64,000 nucleotides of DNA. Origin: Leucoraja ocellata. Lineage: Eukaryota. The stretch is taken from contig JAWMAR010000463.1 of NCBI GenBank assembly GCA_036785375.1, positions 744,001 to 808,000 of the forward strand, given 5' to 3'. This document shows positions 1,352-24,711 of the stretch, piece by piece. Below the pieces are notes generated by a model that did not search any database, had not been told where the DNA came from, and saw only the letters and a list, made by a program, of their open reading frames with translations. The position numbers and the translations under genes were made by a program. Position 1 is the stretch's first letter, and every line of letters begins with the position of its first letter.

Positions 1352-1840
1352 TGTTTAAGAAGGAACTGCAGATGCTAGAAAATCGAAGGTAGACAAAAAT
1401 GCTGGAGAAACTCAGCGGGTGAAGCAGCATCTATGGAGCGAAGGAAATAGGCAGCATTTCGGGTCGAGACCCTTCTTCAGTCTGATGTGAGGGTGAGGGG
1501 GGCAGGAAGAGGTGGAGCCAGTGGGCTGAGGGAGAGCTGAGAATGGGAGGTGAAAGTAGGGAAATTAGAGAAGTCAATGTTCATAACGCTCAGGTGCAAA
1601 CTGCCCAAGCGAAATTATGAGGTGCTGCTCCTCCAATTTACGGTGGTCCTCACTCTGGCCATGGAGGAGGCCCAGGAGAGAAAGGTCGGATTCGGAATGG
1701 GAGGGGTAGTTGAAGTGCTGAGCCACCGGGAGATCAGGTTGGTTATTGCGAGCCGAGCGGAGGTGTTCGGCGAAGCGATTGCCAAGCCTACGCTTGGTCT
1801 CACTGATGTAGAGCAGCTGACATCTATAGCAGCGGATCAG
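1352..1840 (-). mobile_element. Penelope-like retroelement 3' fragment (GIY-YIG endonuclease plus terminal repeat)
   Basis: ORF 1574..1888 reads YLIRCYRCQLLYISETKRRLGNRFAEH...VAQHFN...EQHLI, typical of Penelope GIY-YIG domains. The terminal region carries CTGAAGAAGGGTCTCGACCCGAAA on the - strand (1457-1480). Confidence 0.85.
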
Positions 1841-2685
1841 GTATTGGGTATTAGGCAGCAGTATTAGGATTACTGCAGGAAACAACATTTTTCCCCCAAG
1901 ACTCTTTTTTTCATGGATTCCTTTATCATTTTTTCCAAAAAAAAAACAATTAAGAATAAATAAAACATATAGAAAACAAAAAATCTTGAGACCTTCTGAG
2001 CATCTACATATTCAGTCGTGTCATACACGATAGTGTTTGCATTCGTCTTTAAACAACACCCTTGCCACTCGTGCTCCCCTGGTGTGATATCTATTCCCTT
2101 GCATGAGGGATGTCCCAGCCAGACTCTGCCCCTCCATGTTCAGCAGTGGAGGCCCCTCCCCCACCCTAGTCATCCTGCCAGTTCCACTGTTCGCATCCAT
2201 ATATCCCCTCGTTATCACCACTTCCACAGCTGGACCATCGACCATGGTGGTCTACTCCTTTCCTTGGTCATTGGTGCGGCTCTGATTTGTTCTGAACCTC
2301 AAGTAGCCCGAAGGGTTTTGTCCTGAAACGGACCTATTCTTTTTCTCCAGATACGCTGAAGGACTCCAGACTGTTGTCCTCCCCAAGGGATTCACGTCTA
2401 TCCCTGTAGCCTGTATTTGATCTGTCATTTGTGCTTCCTCTTTCCTCACCAGATCTTCAATATCTCTTTTCAGTCAGGGTTCGCTAATTCTGCCAGCTTT
2501 GCCCTTCACTCTAACAGGACTTGGCCTTGAACGCTCGCTGTCTCCATTGTAAAAGCATACTCTGTGCCAGCAGTCCCGTTACCTGCTATTATCATTGCTG
2601 CTGCCAGGCGGTGAGGGGAGGGGAGGGGCCAGGCGGTGCTTCAGGGGGAGAGCGGGGGCGGGGATCCGGGCTGCTGTCGCCGGTC

Positions 2686-2744
2686 ATGTGCCTGTCGAGC
2701 CCGCTGCTGCAGGGGCGGCCTGCGGCGCAGAAGGGAGGGAAATG
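2686..2744 (+). CDS. PISD: PISD alternative first coding exon A (MCLSSPLLQGRPAAQKGGKW)
   Basis: ATG at 2686 and donor TG|GTGAGA at 2745 (phase 2). Joining to G8866 gives KW-LHFPQ, parallel to human isoform 2 (MMCQSEARQGPELRAAKW-LHFPQ). Confidence 0.85.
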
Positions 2745-2914
2745 GTGAGATGTCGAAAACCTTTACCGAATACTGCTGCCTGTTATAACCTGCACGGGGT
2801 TGACAAACGCGTCCGGAGGGCCCACCGCACCGATGCAAGGCCGGCAGATCAGCAGCAGGCCGGCGGCTCGCTGGCGTCTAACGGGGCCGCCGCTAGCAGG
2901 CAGGCTCGCTTCAG
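2742..2914 (+). CDS. PISD: PISD alternative first coding exon B (MVRCRKPLPNTAACYNLHGV...ARFR), different frame from A
   Basis: ATG at 2742, open to donor AG|GTACTC at 2915 (173 nt, phase 2). AG+G8866 gives R-LHFPQ in frame. Resembles the MVRCYK...CYNLHKV...RFR-LQFPQ N-termini I recall from non-mammalian PISD models (not verified). Confidence 0.7.
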
Positions 2915-4019
2915 GTACTCGGGAGCAAACCTCCTCATCTCTCTCCCGTCCGATGATCGGTGGGGCCGGCCCGAGGGGCAGTAATCAGCCGGGGATGGGG
3001 TGGTGGGAGGCGGAGGCAGAGGCCCAGAGCGGATTATCCGAGCAGGAGGGACGGCCCGCCCCGCGGGGAGAGTTTAGGAAACACCGCGGGCTGCCCGGCG
3101 TCCGTGGGGGTCAACTGGGCCAGACCGGAGGAGGGAGGAGAGGTCAGCCGGGCCGGACAAGGCCGTGGGGGGCTGGTCGTAGTCTAGTGACACCCGGGCA
3201 AGAGACAGGGAAGTGGGGGCTGTCGTATGGGTTATCTGGGCAGGAGAGGTGAGCACTCCAGCATCAGCTTAAGTTACTTAGAAGACGGGGTGTGTCTTCG
3301 CAGGAGTTATGAAGGGCAGGTTCCTCTTCGAAGGGGGGGGGGGGGGGAGAGAGATGAGAGGAGGTGGGAAGGAAGAGACTGGCATTGGCAGGAGGCATCT
3401 GTGATAGAGGTTGAGCACATTAACTGCAGCTCATGCCGCTGGGACAAGAGAAGATGCTAGAGGGGTTGGTTACAAGTGACCCAGTTGAAGAAGGGTGAGT
3501 TTGGAGAACTTAGTGGAGAATCCTGGAAAGGGAGAGGTACCTACAAGATATTCTGTTTATCTGTGGTGTGAAATGGGGCAAAGTGGGAAGGCAAGATAGT
3601 AGCTTTTAATCAACGTTCGAGTTGGGAGGGAGATCCATATTCAGGTATCTCAAAAGAGGGAGGAATGGAGGGGGGGGGGGGGGGTTGCCATTTGATTGCT
3701 GAGGGTGAAGTGCTCTTAGGTTGTTTGGGGGTTGGAGGTGAGGGGGTTAAGGGAGGAAAGGGGAGGGTCTGTTGGGTATTGCTGGGATGATGGTGCCGGC
3801 AGGAGAGCTGTGATTCATTGCTTGTAAAGCTGTGAATTTGGATGCTGAGGAGATGCAGGAGCGGGTGATTGGTGTTTTTATGCAGTGATGCTACTTGCTG
3901 ATGATTGGCCGGGTACTCTCTGCAGTGGAGAGGGGAGGGAGGGAGATGGCTCATGTTTGGGGAAGCGCGGCTAAATCAGAGTGCACGGCAAATGCGCAGT
4001 GTGCCAGCCAGGCACAGAG

Positions 4020-4033
4020 ATGGTGCGTTTCTG
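4020..4033 (+). CDS. PISD: Candidate third PISD first coding exon (MVRFW)
   Basis: ATG GTG CGT TTC TG|GTGAGT, a strong phase-2 donor compatible with the 8866 exon. Two inverted CCAAT boxes lie upstream (3868, 3904). Confidence 0.35.
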
Positions 4034-7000
4034 GTGAGTGATGTTGGCTTTCCTCTCAGTAGTTGAGCAAGGTGTTACAAAGATGGCAGCAGTAATGCAG
4101 ATGAAGGAAGTTTTATTTTTTTAATTTTTAAATAATTCCGAACAATGTTACTGTATGTACTAATCAAAAATAGGGGAGGAGTAAATACACCCCATCTGTC
4201 ATGGAAATGTACAGGATGTCACAAAGAAGAATACAGAATTAAATGGGAGAATTAAAGAGCCTGGCTATTGTGTGGGCTAATCAGGGAGATCTGCATACAT
4301 TTCGCACTCGCGATTCTGGCATGAATGCATCAACATTCTGTTTGAAGAACAATCTTGGTTCCTCTCATTAAGATGCCGTACCCTCCTTGACAAGAAAATC
4401 CTCTAAAATGGAGAGTGTGCACTGCCACTGCCCGTTGGTCTGTCCTACAGGTTGTTAGATATTTAAAATGTTCAGACATTAGACCCAACATGTTACCCCA
4501 ACTGTGGTTCTTTCATAAAACTTGGCTCCTCAATCAAACTGCATTGCCCCGAGTTCATTTCCCTGGCCACTTGATAATTTAACCATTTGAGGACAAGGCA
4601 GGGCATCTCAAACAAAATGCATTCTTCAGATGATGCTTGCAGCTTTTGATTTGGGTGTCCTGGGTTGTACAACACCTAATTTCCTTCCAATCCTCAAGAT
4701 ATTTGATTGAGAGTTGTGTGAAATCAGTGCTATGAGTATATAATATTACATGTTTGATACAAAATTATTTGTGATTATTGACCTGTTGTGCACTAGGAAA
4801 GATATTCTTGTCTGCAGTTGTGCTTGACACTGGATTTAAAAAATAAATTGTTGAATTGAAAATGAGACAAATTTAACTAAATTGACTTGACTAAAAACTT
4901 GGCTATTTCCCCCCCCCCCCCCCCTCTTGCTGCATGCGTTGCTCATTTATTCCTGCCCCACCTGTAAAGTTCACACATAAAGTTTGTTCATGCATTTCAT
5001 ATCCTATAGCACACTGAAGTATATAAAATTTGACTATCTGTCGAGACATCCTGTCCCCCTCTAGCAATGAACATCGTCCAGCTTCCTTTGGGCAATTCTG
5101 TTATCATACGGTCAAAATCCTTTTTAGCCTAGCCCAATGTTTCCCTTTCTGGGCTTGTGGATAAGCCTATCTGCTTGTCCAGTGTTTCTCACCATTACTG
5201 CTGGTGTCACACCATGCAACATTTACAAACTGCATGCCTTAAATTGACTTAATTATTAAAGTTCCTGCATATTGCTGTTTCCAAGTGATGTGTGTTGCAT
5301 TGTTTTTCCCCACTGTCGACCACCTGCTTTCATACAGCAGGAATTCATAGTCTTTAGCCTTTGCTTAAGACATGAGAACATAAGAAGTCACAAAGTGCTG
5401 GAGTAACTCATCAGGTCAGGCAGCATCTCTGGAGAACATGGATAGATGAGATTTTGGGTCTGAAGAAGGATCCCGACCCAAAACTAGGAGCAGCAGTCAG
5501 CCGCATGGGTAGACTTGAGTCTATTATGATATTCAATAAGATCATGGCTGATATGATTTGGCCTCTGCTCTCCTTCCAGGCCTGATCCCATAAGCCTTTA
5601 TTTTCCCACTAGTGCAAAAAAAAAATCTTTCATCCCTCTACTTAATGACTTGGGATTAGAGAAGCCTAAAAACTCCCAACTTTCTGAAGGAAGATGTCTC
5701 TCCTCATCTCTTCTTTATTCTGTCACTATGGCCCTTTAATTCTAGATCTATTGCACGAGGAATATGTGCCCCTAGCAATCATGTGCTGCCATGTGTTCAC
5801 CTTTCTCCAGTACCAACACGCAAGCTGCTCGTCATGCACTGACACGCTAGCAGAGATAAGGTCATCCCATTACTTCTCCTGGTAAAAATGTACCTTTAAC
5901 AACAACAGAGATCAGTTCCGTACTGGGATGGTACTCCCATAGTTCCTATTCCAATCACCAATGTGCTTCACTGCCAGTCTGCCTGCTAGGTGCTGATTTG
6001 TTCCACCTTTTGTGAAGGATTAACCAACCGCTTCTAATTTATCTATGGGCATAGTGTGTTAGTCATTGTAGCCTGAAGGGATCTTACTTGAATTAACACA
6101 TTGACTACACTAAAGTCTCTGTTTATACAATGGACACATACCACAGAACTCACGAGCTTTGCAATGGATCTAAAATGGCCTGGGGTAAAACTCCTTTCCC
6201 CTTTATAATTGGTCATGCCTTTCTAGGCAAATGGAGGAAGTGTGTTAGGGATCCCAGTCCAAAATGTGTTCCAGTAACGTTTGCTAGAATTTGTAATCAT
6301 GTGGATGTCATCAAAGATGACTTGAGCTAGGTGGCCAAATGCCTTGCCAAATTTCACTTTCAAGGTTCATGTGGAATTGGGTGGTACTGAAATCTGTAGG
6401 ACAGCATGGTTATTACCTTCAGTAGAGGAGAAACTGTTTAGGCACTAGTGTTGGTTCTATGAATCTATTTTGTTAATGCTGTTAATTATGTGGGTCTGGC
6501 ATCCATTCAGCATTTTCTCTCCACCCCATGGACAGCGTCAGAGACTGGCAACTCTCCACATCCCTTGATAAGCCATTCTCTCATGAGATGTTCGAATTAG
6601 CCCAAACTGTTGCCAGCAATGTTAGATAAATTAAATCAACAAATTGGGTGAAGATAGTGACACGCAAAACCAGAAATTAAACAATAACAGTTAGAAAGAT
6701 GCATCAATCTGAGCAGAATTTCAGGCAAGAGAAAGGTTTAGTCTTTCAGATCAAAGACTCTGGGAAGAAATAAATAAACCTTAACTTTAACATAGTGATC
6801 GGGGGAAAGAGTTGGAGCAAAGGGACCACTGTGACTGACTTGTAATTAAATATAAAATGGTGTACTACTGAGACTGCTTCACAATACAAAGTGCTTTGGC
6901 AACTGTGTAGTACAGCTCCTCTCTGTCCTTTTTCCTGAGTCACTTTAAAAATGTTTTGTTCTATTTGGACAAGATAACTTTTATTGCCAAGTATTTTGCT

Positions 7001-7904
7001 GCACTTACCAGTGTTGTTGGCATTGCCACATTTTAATTACCTATTTAAAAAATAGAATTCATTTCTCTCAACTCTTCCCTTCATTTTTTTCTAATCGTGA
7101 ATTTGTCCACTTGCATCTGACTTGTTAACAAGAGAAAAACTGCCTCTTGTGCACTTTAAAATGAACTCTTAACATTCATTGTTCAGAGGTAACGACTCAC
7201 ATTTCCTGGTGAATGTTTCTCAGAAACCCTTAACTGAGGTCAGCCTTTGACATTGCTGAGTATAGTTGGGCACAGCCTCACACTTTCCATGCTATTGTCG
7301 ATGGAGGATTTGCTTCAGACCACATGCTGACCTAAATGCGGAAATGCCATTTTGCTGTGTCATTTATCCTGCTATTTAACAGAGAAAATAGCTCCACATT
7401 TTTAATAACTAAACTTAGCTGAAAATTCTGAATAACCCAACTTAGCTCCCACAAAATTGGTTCAAATAGATTAATTTGGGGGTTATTTTTATGGAGGCCT
7501 GTTTGATTTGTGCTTCTGCTCAATTACCTGATGAAGCGTTCAGCCAGAAAGAAACTTATTTTAGTTTAATTGTCCAACCGTGCTGTCTTTAAGAGAATAG
7601 AGGCAATATTGTGGAATGGAATCTGTATACAATCTCTGGAATTTCTATTATATTGTAGAGTAAATCTTTTTGAGAACATGATTCACAAAGTTGGCAAGAA
7701 GCATTGTGAGCAAAGTCATACATGCTTAGAGTGGAACTAGTTTTGCAAACTCATCCTTTTTTGTTCCAGAGTATAGAAGAATTAGATGAGATCACAAAGA
7801 TGATTGGGGAAAAAAAAATGGACAGTTTAAATGCAGGGAGGAGCGTTCCCCTAACTGAGGATCTGGGACCAGAGGGCACAGTTTCAGAATGAGGGGTGGT
7901 TTGT

Positions 7905-8410
7905 TCAGCAACCAGCAGTTTATTGGAACAACTCAGCAGTTTGGAGGGAAATGGAAAGTCGATGTTTCTGTGGGGGACATATTCATCTGCAATGAGAGTG
8001 TAGGGGGGAATAGCCAATATAAAGAGGTGAGGAGGGTGGTAAGTGAGAAGAGTTTGGTTGAAGATGGGGTCGGGTGGGGAAGCAAAAGGTGGAGATAGTA
8101 ACAGAGGCTGGGAGATGTTAAGTGGAGGCAACAAAGAGCTGCCGATGATGGAATAGGACAAGGAAAGGAGTAGCATGGAATCAAATAAGGGAGGTAGGCT
8201 GAGCAGATGGGACCAACAGGGGAAGGGGGCACAATGGAAGGAAGATCTGGTTGATGGACAAATGTAGATGGGGAGTAAATGTGATCTGGAAGTGAGGATT
8301 AAAAAGTAGGATGTGCATGAGATTAGAAGGAGAGAGAGAGGTGGGGATTGGAGTCGCGGCTTAGCTGAAACTAAAGATTTAATTGTTCATGCCGTTGGCT
8401 TGTAGATGAG
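7905..8410 (-). mobile_element. Degenerate Penelope-type terminal fragment
   Basis: Same layout as the 1352 element: aactcagcag..., purine-rich body, then tgaaactaaagatttaattgttcatgccgttggcttgtag. Confidence 0.5.
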
Positions 8411-8865
8411 GAGAAATATCTTTACTTGTGGTAATTGTGCTAAGTTTGTGAAAACTAAGCCAGGTTGCTCAAAATTGGGAACACGCTCCTCTGATTAAAA
8501 GAAACATGGTTGTAAATATGAACCTCGAAGATCAATAGATGGGTTTTTAGAAGCATCACGATAAGCAATGTTAAACTTTACTGATTTGCAGATCAGTAGG
8601 GAGGTTCAGCTGTCACCCTCCTTCATGGCTTCATCAACTGAAGTTCCCCGAGTTGCACATGGTTTTTTTTTTTAATAAGATAAAGTATAGTTGGGTGAAG
8701 TGATGACAAGAAACTTCAAAAACATTGTATTTGTCTCACCACTAAAGCAATTGAGTATGAACAAGCTGTGTAGCAGTGTGGTTTGTGTGTGAGGTTCTGT
8801 TTAGGCTATAATTTGTGTTTGGGATATCCCCATGCCTGATCAGCTGTGTATGTATGATTCCACAG

Positions 8866-9031
8866 GTTGCATTTCCCCCAGCTGGCTTTGCGGCGCAGGT
8901 TAGGCCAGCTGAGCTGTATGTCCAAGCCCGCACTCAAGCTCCGTACCTGGCCTCTGTCTTTTCTCTATTTCTTCCTGCCATTTAGTGTCCTTAAGCCTCT
9001 TGCAAAGGTAGGATGGCGGCCAACAAGCAGG
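8866..9031 (+). CDS. PISD: PISD short-isoform-specific exon
   Basis: ccacag|G...AGG|GTAAGT. Encodes LHFPQLALRRRLGQLSCMSKPALKLRTWPLSFLYFFLPFSVLKPLAKVGWRPTSR, close to human isoform 2. Confidence 0.95.
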
Positions 9032-11639
9032 GTAAGTGTGCGTTATTTCTAGGTTTGTGACGGGATGGGGAGTGGGGTTGATGAGAGGGTAAATCCAGCA
9101 TCCATAGGTTGCTTGGTGATTAAATTAATGTATACTTCTGCTGTATATTGATGTGCTGTGATACTTGCCATCTTTCTCTGTGCCTAGTGGTGGCATGTAG
9201 GTAACAACATGTTAAGATTTGTTTTGATAAAGTGAGCAACTGTCTGTATTTCTACTCTGTTTTTCTATTGTGCATTTATTCAACTCATTGGGTCCCAGTA
9301 CTGGCCAACACAGGTTGGTGCCTCTGATTTGGCTGGGTTTCAAATAGTAGAAATGCAGTCATTAAAATCTACCTCTGTATTGACCATTTCATATACAGAC
9401 TTGTTTAATTTTTATCTGATTACCCAACTGAGAAGCAAGTTGGTAAATTTTACCCATTGGAGGTGCTATATAAATGTGGGTCATTATTATAATTGAGGTT
9501 GAAAATCAGCAAACTGCAGATGATGGAAATCTGAAATAAAAACAAAAAATGCTGGAATATTCTAAAGCCAGGCAGCATCTGCGGACAGAAAACGGAGTTG
9601 GTGTTTCCCATGTTTGTTGAAAGTTCCTTCATCGAAATCCTAACTATTTCTCTTACTGTAGGTACTGAGCATTTTTAGAGCAGATAACTAAGATGGAAAG
9701 GAAAGGTTTGAAGGAATGTGGGATTAGGTTGGTTAGGCAACCTGGTTGGTATGGACCATAGGGCCTGTTTCAATGCTGCATATCTAGCTCTATGATGTAG
9801 TCAGCCTGCTATGTTGAAAGGCACTGACATCAAATTGTAGCTGTGGAATTGTGTTCATTAGAAATAGACACACAGTAGCATTGGAACCTTTGTTGGTATT
9901 CAGCAGGTAGGACAGTGGGAGGCCAGCTCTGTGGCTACTCAGCATTTACGTTGTTCACTTTCACGATACAGATCTATAGAGTTGAGTACAATAATGGCCC
10001 AAATAACAAGACTGAGATAATTTGTCAGTGCAGTGGGTGGCTGTAAATTAAGATCAGACCATCTTCTCTTTTCATAGAAACGCAAGGTATGGCCCAGAGT
10101 GTTGCAATGTGCGGGCATTATGATGCCAGCATTAAAACATTCTTGGCTCAGCTCTACCTTCAAGCACCTACTGCTGTCAGTACTAACAACATAAGCTTGA
10201 CTAAAATTTAAAAACAGGTCACTGGCCTCCATCCAGTTCTGTTGCTGGGGTATTGCATTTGATTCAAAATATGACCTACGGTGTTTTCTTCTTCTGGAAC
10301 ATCTAAATTTGTATCTGGATCGTTGCATTTGACATTGTAAGAGTGATTGGTCATCTAATTTATATATAGTCTTTGTGTTCATTTGATGAAAGATTGCCTG
10401 AGAATTTGTGGTATGTAACTGATTGGTTCATGTACCATGTCCTGGATATCATTGTTAGTTTAGGGATCTGGGAATTAAACTTTGATAAACTCTCAACCTC
10501 AGAACCTATTGCATTGACTAAGCTCTGGTCATTCTTCCCAATATATCTTCTGGCTCGCTGCTGTGTTCCATTGATTCGAGTCTAAGCATTGAATTGTCCT
10601 GAGGTCTTTTCCAAACCTAACGGCTCTAGCAAGCTTTTTGTAATTAAGTGTTTAAGAACTCCGTTTTAAGATATTTTATCAGAGGGATTAACAGTTTATT
10701 GATGATTTAAAAAGAAGCCTCATTCCCCTGTCATTAAAGAAAACAGCACTCAAATCCAATTCTGATGAATAGAGGGCAACATTGTACAGAATGTGACTTG
10801 AAATGAAAGCATACGCAGGATTGAGAGACTGGCTTCAGAACGTAGATTGACGGGTCTTGAGGTAAACCACAGACCCCAGTCTGGAAATTCCCAATTTAGG
10901 AACATGGATAGTAATATGAATCTTCTGCATCCCAATATTGGGCATTCCTCTCAATCCTTGAATACTTTCTTGATTAGATACTGTTGTTCCGAGAACTCCA
11001 TGCCTGAATCGCTCTAATCAGGTTGAATGCTAGACAAATTGCTGTCGTCCATTTTTGAAGAAGTGTAAATCCTAAAAAGATGAAGCAGAATCCAAGTGGT
11101 TTGCAAAAGGACAATAATGTTTGACAAATGTAATAGATTTTTGATGATGTAACTAGCAGTGTGGGCAATGAGGAACCAGGGTGCAGTTTATTTGGATTTT
11201 TAAAGCAAAGCCTTACACCCTGACCCAAGCTTCTGTTGTGGTTGTCTGAGGCATCAACATAATATCTCTCGGGTCACAGGATGAGCAGACTGCAAGAACA
11301 CTCTCATCTTAACAACAGCAGGAGTGCTCGAGATAACTCTGAAGCATTTGTTGATCCAGAAGTAGGTATTCTAGGCATCCTCCCGAGAATCGTACTATCG
11401 CAGAACCCAGTCCTCGGCCGATTCTATTCACCACGTTACAACAAGAAACAGTGGAGAGCAATGGACGTGCAAAGACGACTGATCTGGTTGTGTTACTGAA
11501 ACCTGTGCTCTTGAATTGGCCCATTCTCAATCATCAGCCAAGTGATATCATCATCATCAACAAATGCATCATCAACAGCTTACCAAGTTATACTTAATTC
11601 CTGCTCATTGATAACCCAGTTTGAGGTTTGGACCAGTTG

Positions 11640-12560
11640 TCTCCAAAGCTCATGACATGGACCAAAGAGCTGAATTAAGAAGTGAGGCGAGAGTGACTGC
11701 CCTTGACATCAAGAAGGCAGTTGGCTGAAAGTGGCATCAGAGATCCCTGGTAAAACTGAAGTAACCAATGGGTAAACACTCTGGTGGGGCCCATTGAGGG
11801 ATTATTCCTAGGCCCAACCGTCTTCAACTGTTTCAGCAAAGACTTTCCTTCCACTTTAAGGTCAGAAGAGATGTTGGCTAAGGATTAAAGTGGTCATTTC
11901 CATTCACAACTCTTCAATTAAAGCAACACCTAAATATGATACGGGCATTGTCTAGGAAATGGCAGTAGCATGAGTCGGGCAATGACTACCTTTGGCAAGA
12001 GTAACAACCTATCCAATACTTTGTGGTATTATTGTTGCCAAATTACCTCTGCGCTAATTAACTGGACCAGTGCCTTCCCAAGCAGGTCAGAATCTGGGTG
12101 TGTTGCAGCAAATAATTCTTCTCTTGACATCCTAAAGCCTTTCATCGTCTACAAACAGTGCGGTGGAATGGTCTTCACATGTCTGAATGAGTGGATTTCC
12201 AACAATACCGAGGAAGCTCTGCACCATCTGGCACAAAGCAGCCCGAGTCAATGAAACCCCAGCTATCACCAGAAATGTTCCTTCCTTTCACAACCAAGGC
12301 ACAGTGCCTACAGTGTGTACCATATATAAAGTGCACTTATGGAAGTTACTTGCCCTGGCTACTCTGACAGCACCAGTGTGCTGGGCATTCTAAAATCAGC
12401 ATTCTTTGCCAGCAAGAGGGATAAACATCAGATGCATGAGCTCGCCACCACCTGCAGGTTCCCTCCAAGTCGCGCACCATCCTGCTTTGCAAATCTATCG
12501 CCGGCCCTTCATTGTTAAATCCATCCCTGGCCAGCAGCAATGTGTGAGTAACTTCACCAG
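11640..12560 (+). mobile_element. Degenerate LINE (CR1/L2-group) reverse transcriptase fragment
   Basis: gtgactgcccttgacatcaag (VTALDIK) at about 11693 resembles the RT xLDxxKAFD motif. The frame is broken by stops and frameshifts. Confidence 0.6.
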
Positions 12561-12589
12561 GGGGAACTGTGGTTAAAGAGTGGTGGTGG

Positions 12590-13075
12590 AGTACTTAGTG
12601 TGTTGTATGCAGTTCTGATTGTCACACTATAGGAAGGATGTGGTTGCACTGGAGATTCACGGGATATTGCCTGGATTGGAGGACTTTAGACATGGGAGAA
12701 ATTGGGTAGGCTGGGCTTGTTTTCCCTCATGAAGGAGATGGGGAGAGGGGAGTCGAGGCATATCAAATTATAAGAGATGTAGATAGTGACGATGGTTAGA
12801 ATATTTTTCTCATTGTGTGGTGTCAAAAGCAAGAGTGTGTGGGTCTACAGTGGGAGGTAGGAGTTTTAAAGGAGATTTGACGAGAGTTTTTTACACAGTG
12901 GTTGACATCTGGAATTTGCTGAGGTCGTGGAGTCGGATCCAATGACTACTTTTCAGACACTGACAGGCATTTAAATAGACATGGCATAAATGATTCGGGA
13001 TTAGTGTAGATGGGCAAAAAAGTCAGCATGGACGTGTTGTGTTGAAGTACCTGGTACTATGCTGTACATCCCTAT
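12590..13075 (+). mobile_element. Degenerate CR1 LINE 3' end
   Basis: gtgttgtatgcagttctg...cactataggaaggatgtg...ttttacacagtggttg... follows the CR1 ORF2 C-terminal pattern. Confidence 0.65.
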
Positions 13076-13633
13076 AACTAATATGGCTCACCATAAATGC
13101 TGCAGATCCTGAAAAAGATTCAGGCTGGTTGTGGTCAGGCTGGATTTAGATTAGGTTTTAAACTTTACATCTGAGCAAATCTCTACTTGGATAGAGATCT
13201 GGTTTGCTGACAGAAAGCCAAGAATAGGGAGAATCTCTTTGAGGAAGGACCACAGGTTAGGACCTGGCTATTGCACATAAATTATTTAAAATTTTGCATT
13301 AAAACACCATTAAACATTTATGATGTGATGTACTAATGTTGAATAATGGAATAACGTTAGTTGTGAGAATGTAATGTTCTGTACTAATATATTTTAGAAT
13401 TTTCTTATGAATTAAATATATTTTCACACTTAAAACGGGTAATTTTAGGCTGGTGAACTTTAATGAGTGTGATGCCGCAGAAAATGCCATTTACAATCTA
13501 AATAAAAGTTGTAGACAAAGGCACTGGGTGATGATGGTGTTCAGCTGGGTGGAAAAGCGAGGAGAATGCAGAGTGTGTAAAGGGCTATAAATGGACTGTG
13601 TAGATAACGTGCAGAAATACAAAATCATCTACT

Positions 13634-13878
13634 AGGTGCAGGAGCAGGCCATTTGGCCCTTCGAGCCAGCACCGCCATTCAATATGATCATGGCTAATCA
13701 TCCAAAATCAGTACCCCGTTCCTACTTATTTCCCCATATCCCTTGATTCCGTTAACCCCAAGTACAATATCTAACTATCTCTTGCAGTGAATTGGCCTCC
13801 TGCCTTCTGTGGCACAGAATTCCAGATTCACAACTCTGGCTGAAAAAGTTGTTCCTCATCTCAGTCCTAAATGGCCTG
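13634..13878 (-). mobile_element. HER1/CR1 LINE 3' end
   Basis: Reverse complement of ...ccatgatcatattgaatggcggtgctggctcgaagggccaaatggcctgctcctgcacct. Confidence 0.85.
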
Positions 13879-14004
13879 GGAGAAATAGAAAAGCAGATTA
13901 TTTAAATGCAGCGAGACTGTTTAATGCTGGTGTCACCTTGTTACCTTAGAGCCATAAGATTAAATTGGAGGTACAGCATATGAATTGAAAGGCAGATTGG
14001 ATAA

Positions 14005-14181
14005 GTAAGAGTTAGATTTAGCTCTCGGGGCTAAAGGAATTAAGGGATATGGGGGGAAAGCAGGAATGGGGTACTGATTTTAGATGATTAGCCATGATCA
14101 TATTGAATGGTGGTGTTGGCTCGAAGGGCCGAATGGCCTATTACTACACCTTTTTCTGCACCTTTTTTCCCATGTTTCTAT
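14005..14181 (+). mobile_element. HER1/CR1 LINE 3' end
   Basis: gatatggggggaaagcagg...gccatgatcatattgaatggtggtgttggctcgaagggccgaatggccta. Confidence 0.85.
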
Positions 14182-16077
14182 GTCGGCCCTCTGACCTGAA
14201 AGACCCTCAAGATACATCTTTCTTATGTACGTGCAGATAGATAGTTATCAGGTGCACCTTGACAACATCAATCTCACTGTCACTAAGATCTCTCCAAGCA
14301 TCCCCCTACCTCCCGAGACTGAATCAATGTGGTAGCAGCATTGGGGTGAACAGATTGGTTTTCCCTGACTATTACTGCTTTGTTCTCCCTTTGTCTCATC
14401 ACCTCCCTCCAGGTTTATTTGCTCCTCAGAAACTTCATTCATGCTTCACTTACATCCAAGATTTCTATGACTGTCCTGGATAGCATGCTTCCTCTGAGCA
14501 CATCTGCAGCCACTTCCAGCTTGGACCAGGCATTGTCCCATCACCCTAAGCTCCCTGGCTCCTCCCATTCAAATTTCAAAATTTATATCCATGTTTTCAA
14601 ATTCTTCTGTGGCTTCCCCACTTCCAATCTGCAGCCTCCCACGGCCCGACAAACCTGCAGAACCCAATCTTTCTTTCCAACACTGGCATCTTGTGTGTGG
14701 CTTAATTTTGTTTGCTTCACCATTCTGGTGTCTGGGTCCCACGCTCTATAATTCTCCCTTTAAACTGGTCTGTCTTTGAGGTACTCCTTTAAACCCATCC
14801 AATTCACCGTGCCTTTGTCTAATATCTTATGAGATTAATGAATCTTCTTTAATTACATTTTTGTACAGCAATTTGGGACAGTTTATATTTTAAACGGAAC
14901 TTTACAAATGAGAAATGTAAATTAATATATCGTGACTGATGAAAGTTTAATTAAAATAAAACTTAAGTAATCAGCAGATCAAGCAGCATCTGTGGAGACC
15001 AAATATTTAACTTTCCAGATATCTCTCCTCCCCCCCCCCCCCTCTTGCCACCCTTGCTTCTCTGCATTGTCTCTGTTCACACTACTGCCTCTACCCCCAC
15101 CCCCTTGCCATAATTAAGCAAAAGGAAAGTTCCAGAACTGCACAGGAGGTCACTTTTTGATGCTGGAAAAGATAAGACAATTCTCCAGTACACCCATTAT
15201 CCTTGTTCTGGCAATATTCTTCAGATGGAACATTAACTCTACAGATGCTGAATGTCCCCTGTATGTTTCATGTTTTGGATTTATAATGACTGATGTTTGT
15301 ACACTAAACAGATGCTAACTGAGGCTGCGCTCTGTCAAAGGTGAAGCAAGCAGACAGGGCAGTGCGGCTCCTCTCCCAACCCAGCACATATACACAGGCC
15401 CCTGTAGTTGCCATCACTGGAGCATCCAGTAATATTTCCTGTTATTTTTGCACCCATTTGAGAATCACTCAATCAGTTCAGATAAACTGTGTAAAAGCGA
15501 GGAATCTCCCTGGGTGCTGCCCATCTCATCCAGGTCCCTGGGAGCACATGAAGAAAATGATTTGGCGTGAACTATCAGGGGCAGCCTTGTAACATTTCTG
15601 CAGGGGTAGTGCTTTAGAGTTCATATGTGATAGGAGCAGAATTAGTCCATTTGGCCCATCGTCTAATCTGCCATTCAATCATCTATCTTTCCCACTCAAC
15701 CACGTTCTCCTACTGTCTCCCCTTAACCCCTGACACCCTTAATAAATTAATTTTCAAATGCAAAATACCACAGCTGCAGGTAACAACCTTCACTCATTGC
15801 TTCAATGCTTGGAAGTACTTCCAAATAAGGAAGGTACGATGTACACATTTGGATTTGAAAATTTTCCTCTGGTAGCTTGTGAATCAGTCTCGTATGTAAA
15901 CCCATTCTCCTAAATGTATGTTTTTACATTTGCTGTCCTCTACCACATAAGAATAGGTGCTGTTTCTCCATGTATGGTGGTGCTGCCTGAGACCTCAGCC
16001 ATTGCTCTCTCTCCCTCAGCCAGTGCATCAGTCCCACTGGTGTCAGGACTTTAATGATACTCGTCTGAATCTTGCAG

Positions 16078-16314
16078 GTTGGTTTGTATAAAACGATTCC
16101 CACCCGGCTGCTGTCTCGGGCGTGGGGCCGGCTCAACCAGGTGGAGTTACCCACCTGGATGCGAAAGCCAGTCTATAATTTGTACATATGGACGTTCGGG
16201 GTCAATATGAAGGAAGCTGCAGTAGAAGATTTGCAGCACTACCGAAACCTCAGCGAATTCTTCCGCAGAAAGCTGAAGCCACAGGCACGTCCTGTTTGCG
16301 ACTCTCACTGTGTG
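16078..16314 (+). CDS. PISD: PISD common exon ([17 protein letters not shown]...PVCDSHCV)
   Basis: ttgcag|GTT...GTG|GTAAGT, 237 nt. Matches [26 protein letters not shown]...[14 protein letters not shown]. Confidence 0.97.
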
Positions 16315-17490
16315 GTAAGTTGCATTAAATCCTTCCAGGTATAACAATGAAATCCTGAAGAAAGTACCAAAACAAAATACAAGGTCACCGGGCCCCCTCT
16401 CACATTCTGATTCTACTTCAGATTTATTTCCTTCCAGTGCTTGAATTTTGATTGGGTTGTAATTCCCCGTGTCCATTGGGTTGTAATCCCCCCTGTCCAT
16501 TGGGATGACTACCTGGGTTTTAGGTATATTCTGTGTGGCATGCCAGAGGAGCTAGTTTCTGGTCTAAAGTGGAGATGGGGGGGAGAAATCAGAAGAGGTT
16601 CCTGTTCCCACTTGTTTAGTGACTAGACACGGATAGGTACCCACCCCAACCCCTCTGCGGCCCATGTTCATGGCTGTTGCAGGCAGAGAAGTTGGACTGT
16701 CCATGGACAGGAGAATTACAGCCCAGTCTATCCAAACTACACCAAGATCTTGCACTTGGCGTGAAAGACTTCCAGATGATATCTGATAGCAGTGGAAAGA
16801 CCTCGGGTCCCCCACTTGGTAAAATCCGGGTTTTATTCTGCCACATTTAGGGAGCACAGTGTTAAAGTTCATTAATCACCTTGCAACAGGAGTAAATCAC
16901 TTCAACGTGTCCGCAATGCATTTGTTACAAACATCAGAATATGTTTATCACATCAATTTGGTAATTTCTATTCAAGCTGGTTCACTGCTTAGAGAGAGAT
17001 GAGGATAAAGCTCTTTTTGTTTTTTTTTAATATTATTTATATAGCTTCAGTCACCTCAGGCTATCCAGAACCACTAAATGGCCAATGAAGAATTTTGGAC
17101 AATGTAGTCACTATTGTAAGGAAACGTAGTAAAATATAAAATGTACATAATGAAGCATTAAAGACTAAGAATAAAGAACCCCTTTTTTCAGCAAAGAGGA
17201 AAGCATGTGAATTAATGGGACAACCCCTACAGCACCAAACCATAATCTCTTTAATGTTCAGTGGGATAATTGGGTGATGTGGTATTAACATGTGGGTGCA
17301 TTAGATACAGCCCAGGATATCCTCCATATCCAGCCTGTGTCCTAAATCTGAGCACTTGCTTATGTTTTGTCCCGTGCGATGGATGAGAAATTTAACGTTA
17401 GTTTTGTCGTGGAGAGGTTTCTTGACTATTTTAACTCAACGACGATCGGGTTGTGTGTTGTTGGTCACTTTTCTCATTGTCTTTTCCTAG

Positions 17491-17629
17491 ATCAGTCCTT
17501 CTGATGGAAAAATCCTGCACTTTGGGAGGGTGAAGAACTGTCAGGTGGAGCAAGTGAAAGGTGTGACTTACTCATTGGAGACTTTCCTAGGCCCTCAGAC
17601 CTGGTCAGAGAACCTGGAGATTAGAAACA
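17491..17629 (+). CDS. PISD: PISD exon ([14 protein letters not shown]...LEIRN), contains catalytic Asp
   Basis: ttttcctag|ATC...A|GTAAGT, 139 nt. Contains the SPSDG and QVKGVTYSL motifs. Confidence 0.97.
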
Positions 17630-17709
17630 GTAAGTTCATTTCTCAATACTGGGTTGCACATCTTCTTGGATATTTCCGAATTTTAAGTTATCTCACAAAG
17701 CTCTCATTT

Positions 17710-17985
17710 AGGGGGAAATTCTTTAAAACCGAGATGAGAAGAACTTTTTTCACACAGAGAGTGGTGAATCTCTGGAACTCTCTGCCACAGAGGGTAGTTG
17801 AGGCCAGTTCATTGGCTATATTTAAGAGGGAGTTAGATGTGGCCCTTGTGGCTAAGGGGATCAGGGGGTATGGAGAGAAGGCAGGTGCGGGATACTGAGT
17901 TGGATGATCAGCCATGATCATATTGAATGGCGGTGCAGGCTCGAAGGGCCGAATGGCCTACTCCTGCACCTAATTTCTATGTTTC
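17710..17985 (+). mobile_element. HER1/CR1 LINE 3' end (young)
   Basis: Encodes [20 protein letters not shown]...[10 protein letters not shown], followed by a 3' stem-loop ggtgcagg...cctgcacc. Confidence 0.9.
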
Positions 17986-18002
17986 TATTTACCTTCTCAC
18001 TT

Positions 18003-18010
18003 CTATCTAC

Positions 18011-18046
<36 letters not shown>

Positions 18047-18078
18047 ATATCTATCTATCTATCGGATTGATCTATCTA
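18003..18078. repeat. (TCTA)n microsatellite
   Basis: Tandem tcta units seen directly. Confidence 0.95.
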
Positions 18079-19342
18079 CTTGGTCCAGAAATATATCCTT
18101 GAAATCCATTGTGTAGTGTAAAATTGGGCAATGTTTCACTGCAGCTGAATATGGAAGGCAGATGAGGAGGCATTTTTATAGGGCCTTCATAATCTATGTT
18201 TCCGAGTGTGATACTGTGATGCAAAATGGAACTAACGATGGATTGACATAAACACTAGTTGATTGTCAGTGTTACATTGGTGTGCTGAAGGGCTGGTAGC
18301 CATACTGCGTCTTTCTACAATTCTCTGCAGTGGGACAAATGTTATTCTCCACACGTGACAGCACAGAGTGAGGGATGTGTGGCAAAAATTGGGAATGCTT
18401 TTCAAAGTCATTTGTAAAATGTAATGTCTTTTTGTTTAGAGGTGTTTTCACAGGCAGGTTTCTGCAAGGATTGTATTTTAATGACGGGAAAAATACTGGC
18501 ATGCTTTTTTTGGCAGTGGCCGTGAGATTGGGAGAGGGAGGCGATTGAGTGTGTTTACCCACACTGAAACGCCAGGTTTAATATAAAGTGTCTCTTTCCA
18601 AGGCCCTGTAGTTCGAAGGCTTCAACTAGGCTTAGAAACAGAAGGCAAACCTGCAAAGGATATTTCAGAGAACAACCAATATTTCAGTCAAAGTAATGAT
18701 TTTTGATAGTGCAGATGGCTAAAAGCTTTACCGCTGAATGGTACCGTTGAAAATGATTGAGTGTGCACCAGAGGCAATCGTTTTTGAAGGGAGGGGTATG
18801 TAATGCTGTGTGAGATTGAACAGATAAGATAATGAGGCCATGGTTGGTTTGAGGAAAAGGGGTTTAATTGCTTAGATCTTGGACTGATTTGATAATACCA
18901 AGTGGACCTGAAAATGCCGAGGTGTCTTGCAGCTCATGAGGCTATCAGAGACCATGAGTTTGATCTTGCCAATAGAGTTGGTGGAATTTTGAAATCCAAG
19001 ACCCCTGTCAAAATGATTGGGAATGCTAGAGATGTAAGGTTCTCATATCTATGTGTGGAGTTGAGTCATGTCAGTGGTTCAGTGTGTCTGAATGGGGTGA
19101 TCAAAAGAGAAGGAATCTAGTGCACAACATATGGGGTGCTGAGATCTTCAAACCACCTTGTTGAATTTAGGATTGTGTTCCCTAAGAATATAGATTGCAA
19201 GTAAAATGCAGTCAATTCACTTCCTCCAATCTATTATCAAAAATCATACTTACTGCACAGTTGCTAGGTTTATGCTGCTGATTTTCTTGTTGGGCAACAC
19301 TGATTTAGTATAAAGTACAAAACAACGGTGATTTGTAGAATG

Positions 19343-19520
19343 TGTAAGGAACTGCAGATGCTGGTTTAAACCGAAGATAAACACAAAAAGCTTGAGTAAC
19401 TCAGCGGGACGGGTAGTATCTCTAGAGAGAAGGAATGGGTGACGCTTCTTCACCCATTCTTTCTCTCCAGAGATCCTGCCTGTCCCGTGAGTTACTCCAG
19501 CTTTTTGTGTATACCTTCGG
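19343..19520. mobile_element. Palindromic non-autonomous Penelope-terminal-derived element
   Basis: Arm ccgaagataaacacaaaaagcttgagtaactc...gaatgggtga and arm tcacccattc...gagttactccagctttttgtgtataccttcgg are inverted repeats. The element is flanked by a cggtgatttgt(a/g)gaat direct repeat. Confidence 0.75.
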
Positions 19521-19580
19521 TGATTTGTGGAATCCTATTTTGATCTACTGTTTGCTGCATAATTTGTTGTAATCCAGCAG

Positions 19581-19727
19581 ATAACACAGAGACAACGTTC
19601 CAGGAGCACCTGGTTACAAAGGAAGGCAATGATCTCTATCACTGTGTTATTTACTTGGCTCCCGGAGATTATCACTGTTTTCATTCACCTACTGATTGGC
19701 GAGTCTCACACAGGCGGCATTTTCCAG
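19581..19727 (+). CDS. PISD: PISD exon (…[32 protein letters not shown]), contains catalytic His
   Basis: ccagcag|AT...G|GTAAGA. 147 nt, or 150 nt from the alternative acceptor at 19578. [11 protein letters not shown] motif. Confidence 0.96.
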
Positions 19728-19979
19728 GTAAGAAGTTTATTGTTTGTTTGGGTTTTACTCTGGAATTGAATTGATATTGTTAAAAGTGACCTTTATCAGA
19801 TTTGCCCATTAGCAACAGTTAGTTGAAAATCAAGCCAATTCTTTGTATCCTGTTAATGAAAATTAGTGAGAATAAAAAAAATATCAAACAAGAATCAAAT
19901 TCAGACAATTTGGAAGGCAGAAAAAAGGCAGATGTTGGTATGAAATTAAACAAAGTGCTGGAGATACTTGGGCAGTATA

Positions 19980-20415
19980 TAACCATATAACATAACCATA
20001 TAACAATTACAGCACGGAAACAGGCCATCTCGGCCCTACAAGTCCGTGCCGAACAACTTTTTTCCCTTAGTCCCACCTGCCTGCACTCATACCATAACCC
20101 TCCATTCCCTTCTCATCCATATGCCTATCCAATTTATTTTTAAATGATACCAATGAACCTGCCAACACCACTTCCACTGGAAGCTCATTCCACACCGCTA
20201 CCACTCTCTGAGTAAAGAAGTTCCCCCTCGTGTTACCCCTAAACTTCTGTCCCTTAATTCTGAAGTCATGTCCTCTTGTTTGAATCTTCCCTATTCTCAA
20301 AGGGAAAAGCTTGTCCACTGTCTATCCCTCTCAACTCTGTCTATCCCTCTCATCATTTTAAAGACCTCTATCAAGTCCCCCCTTAACCTTCTGCACTCCA
20401 GAGAATAAAGACCTA
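19980..20415 (-). mobile_element. CR1 LINE 3' end (second subfamily)
   Basis: ORF 20067..20318 reads TRGH...FFTQRVVAVWNELPVEVV...GMEGYG, with an (aaccatat) tail. Confidence 0.85.
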
Positions 20416-22603
20416 AATATGTCGAGAGAGAAGCAGTTCACAGCCTGACCTGCAAAATGCTCCAAGCCATTCAACCTTGCAAGATCCTCTGTAAACATAA
20501 GGACACTGGTGTTTAAATAGGGAGAGGTTCCACAGCTGTTCAGGCAAACTGTGGAGTTAACTTTTAGATTGATGATAAAAGGCTGTCAATGTCCATTCTT
20601 CTATCACCATAGCTGCTACATGGAATGTTGAGAATTTCCCGTGCTTTCTGGTGGCGTTTGTTACGATTTCAAGCATCCACTGCATTTTTCCCTTTTAGTC
20701 AGGAAAGTCAGAGGCTGTTAATGATGTGGTGGTAGCTTAGTAGTTGAGTCACTGGACAAGCATCCAATGGGACAGGTGAGTGAATACGTGAATTTGAATC
20801 CACCTACAGCAGATAGAAAACTTCAATTAATTAAAATATTCAATTAATTAAATATGGAATGAAAAGTAAGTACAAGTAATAGTGACCTTGGATTGTGTTC
20901 AAATCTCCGTCCAGTTAATTTCCTTTGGAACTGAAATATACCTTGTGACTTACTTTTGACCCACATTAGTGTGGGTTGACCCTAAGCTGCTCCCTGAAGG
21001 CCACAGAAAGCCAATCAGTTCATCAATACTGGTCACACCAGTGCTTCTCATGTTCCAGTTACATCACATATTAACAAAAAGAAGCACATTGAGCACCATG
21101 GTTGTATAATGGAATGGGTATGGAGGCATTGGAGAGAATGCAGAGAAGATTTGCGAGATGGTACATAAATGTGGGTACACATCAATAAAGGACCTGACTT
21201 AGTTACTCTGCGTGAGGAGAGAAGCTAGAGGGGTAACATAATGGTATTGGCAGAATGAATACAGATGTTTTCAGTTATGGAGAAGTGGTGAAGAAAGACC
21301 GTAAGTATATGGCACCAAATGTCCAACAAGGAACTGAAAGGGGACCTCATGTCCGAAGGAGGTGAGAATGTGTAACTCTGCCACAGAGTGGTTGGAGACA
21401 ATATTACGACTATTTAAGGGAAGACAGGGCAAGCAGATGAGGGAGAAGGGAATGGATCATTAGTCCATAGACCCTGCGTTCAGTGCCTTTCCACTCGCGG
21501 GCAGTTCCACTCTGAGAGGGAAGCAATGGCTGGACTAGACCATGCAGCTACCCTGTGGAAAGTAGCATGTCTGAAACTTTCCCAGCAACCAGCTCTCGTG
21601 TTGTGGGTCAGATACTCTTCACCCAGCTCAATGCTTTGCTGTCAGGTAACATCCCGTAACAGGTAATGGATATAGATGAGCTCTCTGATCTAACATGCTA
21701 GTTTCCACGACACAGCCTTGAATCCAGCTGCGTGTGCTAGCTTAGTCTGGAAGGGTATGAATGAGATGGATCTAAAAATGACATCAATCAGAGATCACTT
21801 TAATATTAATGCCATCTCCTTGACGGTCAAAAGAGATGCATAAATACAACCTCTTTCCCTGAAGATTGACAGCAGGATGGGTCTGTAGGTTAATCTCTAA
21901 ATGAGATTAATGGAGCCATTGGTAATCAGCTGGGTCCTATATTTAAATCTCATACAGTAAAAGGTGGAAGAGACTATCTTGAATAAAAATGATTTTCAAC
22001 TTTATTCTTGTACAAAAATCAAAAACTCAGATAAAAATGGAAGGTTTCTTGCTTATCAATTGTAGGGTCCATCAACGTGATGCGAGTGAAGAAGTGGATC
22101 ATACTTCTTGGAGCATAGTGGGTTAAAATGAGCTTTAAAGATCTAACTGATTCGGGATTTTGATAAGAGAAAAACCTCTTTCCACGAGCAGGGTATCGGT
22201 CACCAAAGAAGACGGTTTTGCGATAATTAAAGACAGGATCAATAAGAGGAGGGAATTAGATTTTTTTTAACACTCTGAGCAACGATCAGGAATTCACTGC
22301 CAGAAAGTTGAAAAAAGATTCAATAAACAAGGAAATTGTCTGATTTTTTAAAAAAATGCTCAGGGAAAAAACAAGGGTGTGATATTAATTTATATCTATT
22401 TTACGATACAGTCCTTCAGATTAAAAATTCTGTAATTATAAAAGATAACAGCGTTGGGCCATTTTGATTTCTACCCAAGCAGGAATCAGGATGACATGCA
22501 GTTAGACAAGGGTGTTGAATCATGGTTGGTATTGGCACGTTGCGTTAGCTAACAGTGGTCGTGTATTGGCAGCTGGGAGGATAAACCCAGATTGCATTTT
22601 TGA

Positions 22604-22870
<267 letters not shown>

Positions 22871-23919
22871 TAGGACGAATGGTAATCAAAGAAAGTTGCC
22901 TGAAAGCCTGAAATAAAATCAGAAAATTATGGAAACTTAGCGGATCAATCAGGATCTGTGGAGCCAAAATGAGTTAACATTTCAGGTCATCTATTATGTA
23001 GGAGTTTTTTTAGCAATGTGGGTATAGCACTTGATACTGGTAGATGGTAGAGAAGGGCAGAATATACATTTATGCCCTTGATCGAGGGTTATCAGTGAAT
23101 TAGCAACCAATGGATTGGAAATTCATCTCTCTAAAATTACTGGGTGGACGTTTGTTGTCAGTCTGTTGTACGTATTTCATATCCTGGGAAGCGGGCCAGA
23201 GGTTCTCACTCTTACTGTGCCCACTTACATGAATGGACATTTTGTACAAAAATGAAATAGAAATGCCTGAATCACTGTATATCTACAGGTATAATCCTCA
23301 CAATTGATGTGATAAATGAACCTGCAGCGTTTCATCAAATTCTTATGAGAAGTGGGGTGGGGAAAGTACTTGCAAGGTATCTGTGGGCACCAGTGATCTT
23401 ATGGCAAATTGTGGTTTGATGGTTTGAACCTTGAATGGGCAAAGCTTGATGAAGAGCATTACCCGATTCAACATATTTTCTGCGCCTAAGGGGCCGAGGC
23501 TTGGGACAATTTGGCACAGGCTAAAATTTCCCCTTTTCACCCAGAAAACCACTGGCACGAAGGCTGGGACATCTACCCTGTGGACCTGCGCTAGGTTAGA
23601 CCTGGCACTAGGATGGTGGTTCCATCAAAAGCAATGGGAAGAAACAGACTGTTGACAGCATTGCAAAACACTGTCGATATTGGAAATACTGAGCAGGTCC
23701 GGCCGGCAGCCCCAGTGGAAAGAGAAACAGACTATGGTTCTGGTTGGTAACCAGTTATCAGATTGTGAAAAACAAATTGTCGTTCTGCAGGTCCCTGACT
23801 CATCAGTGCAGTGTTACTTTTAGTTTTGGTGCAGCAGCTGTGATATGTGTAAATGACTCAGTAATATCTGTGTGGATACTGGTCAAGTCCCTGTGGGAAA
23901 TAGATTACCGGAAAATCCT

Positions 23920-24090
23920 TGGCACATGCTTGTTCTCATTTCTGGGCTTTCTGCTCTTCATGTTTTATTATTAATGTTTTATGTGTCATTCCTCACTGTC
24001 ATTGTATGTCATGTTGTCACTTGTGGGCGAAGCACCAAGGCAAATTCCTTGTATGTGAATACTTGGCCAATAAACTTATTCATTCATTCA
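23920..24090 (+). mobile_element. LINE 3'-tail fragment ending in AATAAA-(TTCA)n
   Basis: gcaccaaggcaaattccttgtatgtgaatacttggccaataaacttattcattcattca. Family not determined. Confidence 0.5.
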
Positions 24091-24486
24091 TAATCTTACA
24101 TCCATTTCGACGGATTCCCAGATCCTCCTCTTTCCCTTGTTGCATGTTAGGCTATTTCCATTTCCCAATTCACTTACTTTGACCTACTGTTAAAATAAGC
24201 AACTCAATTTCCTTTATTGTTTTTCGCATTTCATTTCTTGTTACCATTAAGCTTATTGTGGGACAGGCATCTTATTTTTATTGTTCAATTGGAAGTGAAA
24301 GCTGAAGAGCTACGGTACACAATTGCTCCTCAATGGCAGCTTCATGCTTAGTTGATGAATACCAATGTTAAGCCCTTAAGACTGTCAAATTGTTGAAGCC
24401 ATTATCCATCAAGACTTTGGTTGACTATGGAATGGGATGGTACTGCAGGAACACGGCATTTTACTGTATTATTTTATTTTGCACAG

Positions 24487-24711
24487 GATCTGCACACCAA
24501 CAGCCCTCGCTACATGAAGGGCTCATACAATGACTTCAGTTTTATCACAAACAACAACAAGGGAGGGGTTACGATGCAGAAAGGAGAGCACCTAGGCGAA
24601 TTCAACTTGGGCTCCACCATCGTTCTCATCTTCGAGGCACCAAAAGACTTCACCTTTAACCTTAAACCTGGACAGAAGATCAGGTTTGGAGAGGCGCTGG
24701 GGTCCATCTAG
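24487..24711 (+). CDS. PISD: PISD last coding exon with LGST pyruvoyl-generating self-cleavage motif
   Basis: gcacag|GAT...TAG. Encodes DLHTNSP...[16 protein letters not shown]...GEALGSI*, with LGST at 24607-24618. Confidence 0.98.

Follow-up and report, generated by a model that had tools for sequence, protein, structure and literature searches.

How is phosphatidylserine decarboxylase (PISD) divided between compartments, and does a skate exon in which two splice donors and two start codons are interleaved take part in that division? PISD is the single phosphatidylserine decarboxylase of vertebrates. It is essential in the mouse (PMC7938800), mutations in it are found in Liberfarb syndrome (PMC6892740), and its division between compartments has been called an outstanding question (PMC8886813). 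Two isoforms of human PISD are described (PMC8886813, PMC11021183), and Kumar et al. 2021 (PMC7938800) report that the lipid-droplet form, PISD-LD, occurs from fishes on. Their human data place the LD-type protein at lipid droplets and mitochondria; lipid-droplet targeting lies in residues 36-103, encoded in exons 2-3, residues 1-73 go to mitochondria, and competing weak signals were proposed.

We analyzed a window of 64,000 nucleotides from Leucoraja ocellata (GCA_036785375.1, contig JAWMAR010000463.1, positions 744,001 to 808,000). Coordinates below are those of the window, and all features lie on its plus strand apart from the CpG-rich region, which has no strand. The original prediction held that one 11-mer in the first exon of PISD serves as splice donor, uORF stop and second start codon, and that the choice of donor exchanges the protein's N-terminus.

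Results

The gene in the window is of the LD type of PISD (PF02666). A first coding segment (MC…KW) is followed by the LHFPQ exon, which we call exon 2 (8866-9031), and by five matches to the common catalytic exons (16078-24708), and in all three parts the skate protein, form A, resembles human PISD-LD (isoform 2), of which it is the orthologue. The exon region is single-copy and lies in the only PISD locus found, and a paralogue or duplication was rejected on these grounds. The mitochondrial-form exon falls outside the window, ~40 kb upstream of 2686 (G000:C463:705874-706029); it ends in phase 0 and can join exon 3 directly.

All coordinates of the predicted arrangement were confirmed on the sequence, including the 11-mer AAATGGTGAGA at 2740-2750, both donors, both frames and their joining to the exon at 8866. 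Frame A (2686-2744, 59 nt) is the first coding segment of the PISD-LD-type form, and its start has G at -3 and T at +4. The overlap element (2740-2750) contains the Lys-Trp end of frame A, the ATG of frame B at 2742 (G at -3, G at +4), the proximal donor ATG|GTGAGA (U1 duplex -8.1 kcal/mol) and an in-frame TGA. Frame B (2742-2914, 173 nt) encodes an MVRC…RFR N-terminus with a conserved basic core (about residues 1-28), a variable linker and a conserved RFR end. It runs to the distal donor CAG|GTACTC (2915-2920), which is weak past +3 and whose U1 duplex, at -7.1 kcal/mol, was the weakest of the five donors scored. From ATG2686 to donor 2745 there are 59 nt and from ATG2742 to donor 2915 there are 173 nt, both ending in phase 2, and at the acceptor AG|8866 frames A and B both join in frame and are open throughout exon 2. 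With the distal donor, frame A terminates at TGA 2746-2748 after 20 codons, which makes 2686-2748 a putative uORF that is out of frame with ATG2742 and stops downstream of it. A scan of 2301-2686 found no further ATG. The prediction had assigned ATG2742 a role only with the distal donor; this has to be amended, since ATG2742 is exonic in the short form as well, where it opens a 40-codon out-of-frame ORF that stops at 8983-8985 and overlaps an internal Met at 8918.

Frames A and B share only the ATG, that is 3 nt, or 7 nt if the uORF end is counted. A long dual-coding exon with an extended two-frame stretch was ruled out on this basis, and to call the exon "dual-frame" was an overstatement. The in-frame stop simply comes with the donor consensus: by sequence logic, any phase-2 GT(G/A)A donor makes one. 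Our literature search found no citation for stop codons within the donor consensus. A designed third function of the stop was rejected because it follows automatically from a phase-2 GTGA donor, and the three roles claimed for the 11-mer thus reduce to two, donor and second start. When the segment 2745-2912 was shuffled, it was open in 20% of 5000 shuffles. Since the stop is automatic and chance openness is this frequent, the pattern in a single genome is weak; what exceeds chance is its conservation across species.

RNA reads from four runs were compared over 1500-17600; the species match of these runs is uncertain, and repeats swamped the joint and loose-end tables. The only informative joints in the runs compared were exon 2-3 (32 reads in X23 and 55 in X24; also present in an X10 contig) and exon 3-4 (78 reads in X23 and 83 in X24), and the joint 16314>17491 of the catalytic exons was seen in reads. 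Neither 2744>8866 nor 2914>8866 was among the 15 joints listed of 312. In the three raw-read runs, depth in the bin holding the frame A/B exon was 0/0 (X23), 0/0.52 (X24) and 0.03/0 (X21), values whose dips are not reliable as findings. Interspersed repeats of high copy number, where read depth is very high, occur at about 1340-1850, 5389-5460, 13630-14090 and 15620-15700.

Annotated models agree with the prediction that two donors yield two N-termini. The two N-termini of the window are identical, letter for letter, to those of Leucoraja erinacea RefSeq X1 (P0132, frame B) and X2 (P0122, frame A), Leucoraja XP_055511952.1 is identical to frame B of the window, and Amblyraja has the same X1/X2-type pair. 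With two GT donors leading to one acceptor in the sequence and such pairs in two skates, the exon is probably an alternative 5' splice-site exon. Introns in alternative RefSeq models are usually backed by reads, and the support that such models lend is indirect.

We assembled 360 proteins from a search with exon 2 (142 matches, best 120 listed), three cluster look-ups (at most 15 members listed per cluster) and one N-terminal search, and sorted them by pattern. Frame B joined to exon 2 was found in 110 of the 360, nearly all of them predicted models, among which only intact frames get annotated; they comprise 92 different segments, which take 15 lengths between 55 and 72 aa. Frame A was present in 87, two were A-B hybrids and 10 were of the MVRFW type described below. 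The remark in the original prediction that both N-terminus types exist in other vertebrate gene models was right. The remainder consisted of one MVRC protein without the RFR junction, 59 proteins without the start of exon 2 and 91 others; among the latter are several partial B models and two from caecilians whose B-like segment, at 50 aa, fell short of the length cut. Form B occurs in chimaera, sharks, rays, bichir, sturgeons, teleosts, coelacanth and lungfish, and among tetrapods in amphibians, turtles, birds, marsupials, bats, shrews, donkey, macaques and chimpanzee/bonobo. Zebrafish NP_001073170.1 is form B. In P0173, encoded by a Logan contig, B leads into exon 2 and the sequence after it; because the contig has 1651 bases, we infer that it is too short to be genomic if its introns resemble those of the skate. 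Form B was absent among the human and muroid rodent records listed (15/38, 15/28 and 15/102 cluster members, among others). N-terminal homology searches returned no jawless-fish match (7/27 and 8/26 candidates returned, all PISD-labelled or unnamed), and the age of form B is a lower bound because the sensitivity of such searches is low. P0332, a gray-whale model, has MVRC, lacks the RFR junction and shows a run of glycines in frame B, where the tail is shifted. Its tail fits the shifted frame at 9/10, in a weak test where other offsets reach 8; the frame is probably shifted, by real loss or by assembly error.

The overlap of the two starts was followed in 14 models that read through upstream of MVR. 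For thirteen we chose as partner a frame A from that species or a relative, and P0233 was left unpaired; each pair was scored for codon compatibility in the geometry of the window against 1000 shuffles. The shifted frame was matched at 14/16 to 20/20 codons in 12 of the 13 pairs (0/1000 shuffles each), and the pairs cover mole, bats, shrews, pangolin, catfish, bonefish, salmonids and stingray. The pair that failed was a frog model against crocodile (6/17 codons, 159/1000 shuffles). The residue before the B start was E in 13/14 read-through models and K in 1/14, in lineages that are not independent; therefore the second ATG has a purine at -3 in all 14, at a base that is a free third position in frame A. 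In bird models P0206 and P0209 the proximal donor is joined, across a short intron, to an acceptor that lies within frame B, which gives a hybrid A-B N-terminus. As these hybrids splice A into the interior of B, both frames lie in one exon. Lack of conservation of the MVRC…RFR frame among vertebrates had been named as one of the outcomes that would tell against the prediction; frame and overlap are kept across jawed vertebrates.

We then profiled the conservation of peptide B over 78 segments and 13 clade representatives. Identity among the 13 representatives was 56% over residues 4-28 (core), 25% in the linker, 76% over residues 53-57 and 85% in exon 2. Mismatches in the core averaged a BLOSUM62 score of -0.24 as against -0.77 in the linker and -0.80 in a neutral simulation, in which 35% of runs gained a stop. 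Within B, splice signals bear only on M, V, the first R and the last R. The core of the skate is one of the more diverged and differs from the consensus of vertebrates at several residues (19, 21-23, 28). Frame B with both of its ends is kept over distant species with conservative exchanges, as read from protein records that are biased toward intact frames, and it is probably a conserved protein-coding alternative N-terminus. The core pattern in these protein records points to protein-level constraint on B, and a conserved basic core with a length-variable linker is what would be expected of a selected peptide; nucleotide-level constraint near the donor could explain part of the core conservation. 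These data also bear on whether form B might be an annotation artefact, a read-through of the GC-rich start of the intron spread by homology-based gene prediction. Such an origin would fit the many XP or ab initio models, the 20% chance that a frame of B's length is open and the lack of either exon-1 junction among the read joints listed. However, prediction cannot make 56% identity between shark and macaque cores, and the zebrafish NP record and the contig protein P0173 also speak against it, so that we regard an artefact as very improbable.

The first 30 residues of B contain 6-11 R+K and at most one D/E in all 92 segments (means 7.7 R+K and 0.5 D+E); form A is also basic (5.3). The helical moment of B N-termini was 0.64, equal to that of seven PISD-M N-termini, but the strand moment of B was higher (0.73). 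From its composition, the B N-terminus is predicted to favour mitochondria, and it is short and likely disordered.

The exon with frames A and B may be internal rather than first, and it is not the sole entry to exon 2. In mammalian models the upstream mitochondrial-form exon is spliced into it (P0223, P0080, P0084, P0096), and skates have other entries to exon 2; the designation "first exon" was therefore too strong. Acceptor-like pyrimidine tracts with AG ending at 2452, 2473 and 2477 (2433-2477) match as a pattern and could make the exon internal. A CpG-rich and GC-rich region around the exon (2601-3200; GC 0.68-0.70 and CpG o/e 0.80-0.82 in 400-nt windows starting at 2601 and 2801) is a possible promoter. 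A third entry to exon 2 is a short MVRFW coding segment at 4020-4033 with a near-consensus donor CTG|GTGAGT at 4034 (feature 4020-4039), which matches RefSeq shark and ray models (10/360 proteins); exon 2 therefore has several upstream partners. The end of the MVRFW entry (4008-4039) resembles the start of frame B, and stingray and sawfish models show GR[K/E]MVR in both, a likeness that possibly reflects an old duplication.

Further models reach exon 2 in other ways. RefSeq ray and skate models P0146, P0145, P0123, P0136 and P0148 begin with "MR" immediately ahead of exon 2. The source exon of this start was not located, the only pattern match lying at 1617 in repeat-covered DNA; in runs X23 and X24 it could be the exon to which exon 2 is mainly joined. 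Human (isoform c), dog, mouse, marsupial and fish models (P0182, P0177, P0310, P0112, P0238) apparently continue into exon 2 from the mitochondrial-form exon read in a shifted frame, and PISD may have another dual-frame region there. Many models, such as the 340-aa P0126, P0140 and P0191, start at the internal Met of exon 2 (8918). This Met is the counterpart of residue 36, where the human minimal lipid-droplet signal begins, and a natural short form could arise from it by reinitiation.

The splicing of the mitochondrial-form exon into the long exon also fits a role of the latter mainly in dosage control. Distal splicing would then cut PISD-LD output through the overlapping uORF, or the exon, when included in transcripts from the mitochondrial-form promoter, would be a poison exon; the B peptide would be tolerated and its conservation would reflect splicing signals in the DNA. 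The automatic stop, the weak distal donor, the low read depth over the exon and the lack of a B record among the muroid rodents listed are in line with this. It accounts poorly for a frame that stays open with both ends kept over 15 lengths, for conservative core exchanges, for a conserved R-F before the donor-forced R, for a purine at -3 in 14/14 models and for a zebrafish NP record that is form B. We consider dosage control as the main function unlikely.

Discussion

The account we favour, and think probable, is that this exon, with two phase-2 donors 170 nt apart and two starts in different frames, is conserved in jawed-vertebrate gene models, and that the donor used likely decides whether the protein begins with the known PISD-LD N-terminus or with a third, the basic MVRC type, which is predicted to contribute a signal for mitochondrial import. 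It stands directly on the geometry in the sequence and the conservation in protein records, from which we infer the rest. Form B is a real and ancient third N-terminus of PISD, annotated and apparently unstudied, and is most likely made by alternative donor choice and leaky scanning. With the proximal donor, ATG2686 would give PISD-LD, and ribosomes passing it would start out of frame at ATG2742 and stop after 40 codons. With the distal donor, ATG2686 would open the 20-codon overlapping uORF, and form B would come from ribosomes that leak past its weaker context and initiate at ATG2742, whose context is strong. The two AUGs would exchange roles with donor choice, and each mRNA would thus have one productive and one damping AUG.

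Overlapping uORFs that control a main start through leaky scanning are known from ATF4 uORF2, in which the upstream ORF stops past the main AUG. The long form of PISD is alike in this respect. It differs in that the upstream AUG of PISD is the main start of a sister splice form, with AUG roles that reverse with donor choice.

Form B might instead be made without leaky scanning, from a separate transcription start downstream of ATG2686 or by reinitiation after the uORF, which ends four bases past the B AUG, with donor choice following the promoter. A nearly coincident stop and start is a geometry used in termination-reinitiation, and that of the uORF stop and the B start is of this kind; the CpG-rich region, moreover, spans the exon. 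Against a separate start, the 14 read-through models extend B transcripts upstream over the ATG of frame A, several species have multiple accessions for one B protein, which suggests longer 5' ends, and a start between 2686 and 2742 would leave a leader of <56 nt. We give these routes a small chance, below that of dosage control, and retain donor choice with leaky scanning.

An exchange of the lipid-droplet signal by donor choice was rejected, since the human signal (residues 36-103) lies in exons 2-3, which are common to A and B (PMC7938800), and falls outside the skate exon with two donors. Form B would add 58 residues ahead of the shared lipid-droplet/mitochondria segment. Both forms keep this segment, so B would shift the balance toward mitochondria and not replace an address. 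The regulated switch of localisation in the original prediction is a hypothesis. The extra presequence may change little, because residues 1-73 of human PISD-LD already go to mitochondria (PMC7938800). We can offer only tentatively, as something we would not expect to hold in full, the wider proposal that form B is a third ancient PISD proteoform, from sharks to apes and probably also in human, with a start codon formed by the final three bases of the PISD-LD exon, and that one donor choice both reverses the productive AUG and sets the split of anchor-free PISD between mitochondria and lipid droplets.

In the available text of PMC7938800 two forms, PISD-M and PISD-LD, are described, with no mention of form B, the second donor or the overlapping start. 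RefSeq PISD models of the "isoform X1" type and zebrafish NP_001073170.1 already encode the MVRC…RFR N-terminus. In the literature searched, nothing beyond annotation was found on the function, localisation or overlap of these models, and no paper on the MVRC form was found in what were mostly titles and abstract starts, with subscription papers missing. Tress et al. (bioRxiv 10.64898/2026.05.28.727796) describe ancient splice-derived dual-coding regions, many of which date to early jawed vertebrates. These regions and the PISD exon are alike in that alternative splicing picks the reading frame. They differ in that the regions of Tress et al. produce different C-termini from long dual-coded stretches, whereas the PISD exon exchanges the N-terminus, has an AUG for each frame and shares 3-7 nt. 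PISD has 0 occurrences in the main text of that preprint, whose supplements may bear on it.

The arrangement with its MVRC N-terminus is already known from annotation; as a case of alternative-donor N-terminal switching it is apparently unstudied. Constructs, siRNAs and variant calls near the exon with the proximal and distal donors may affect form B, which is apparently unexamined. The reference protein of zebrafish carries this third conserved N-terminus, chimpanzee and macaque have it in annotation, and it offers a concrete, testable handle on how PISD is divided between compartments.
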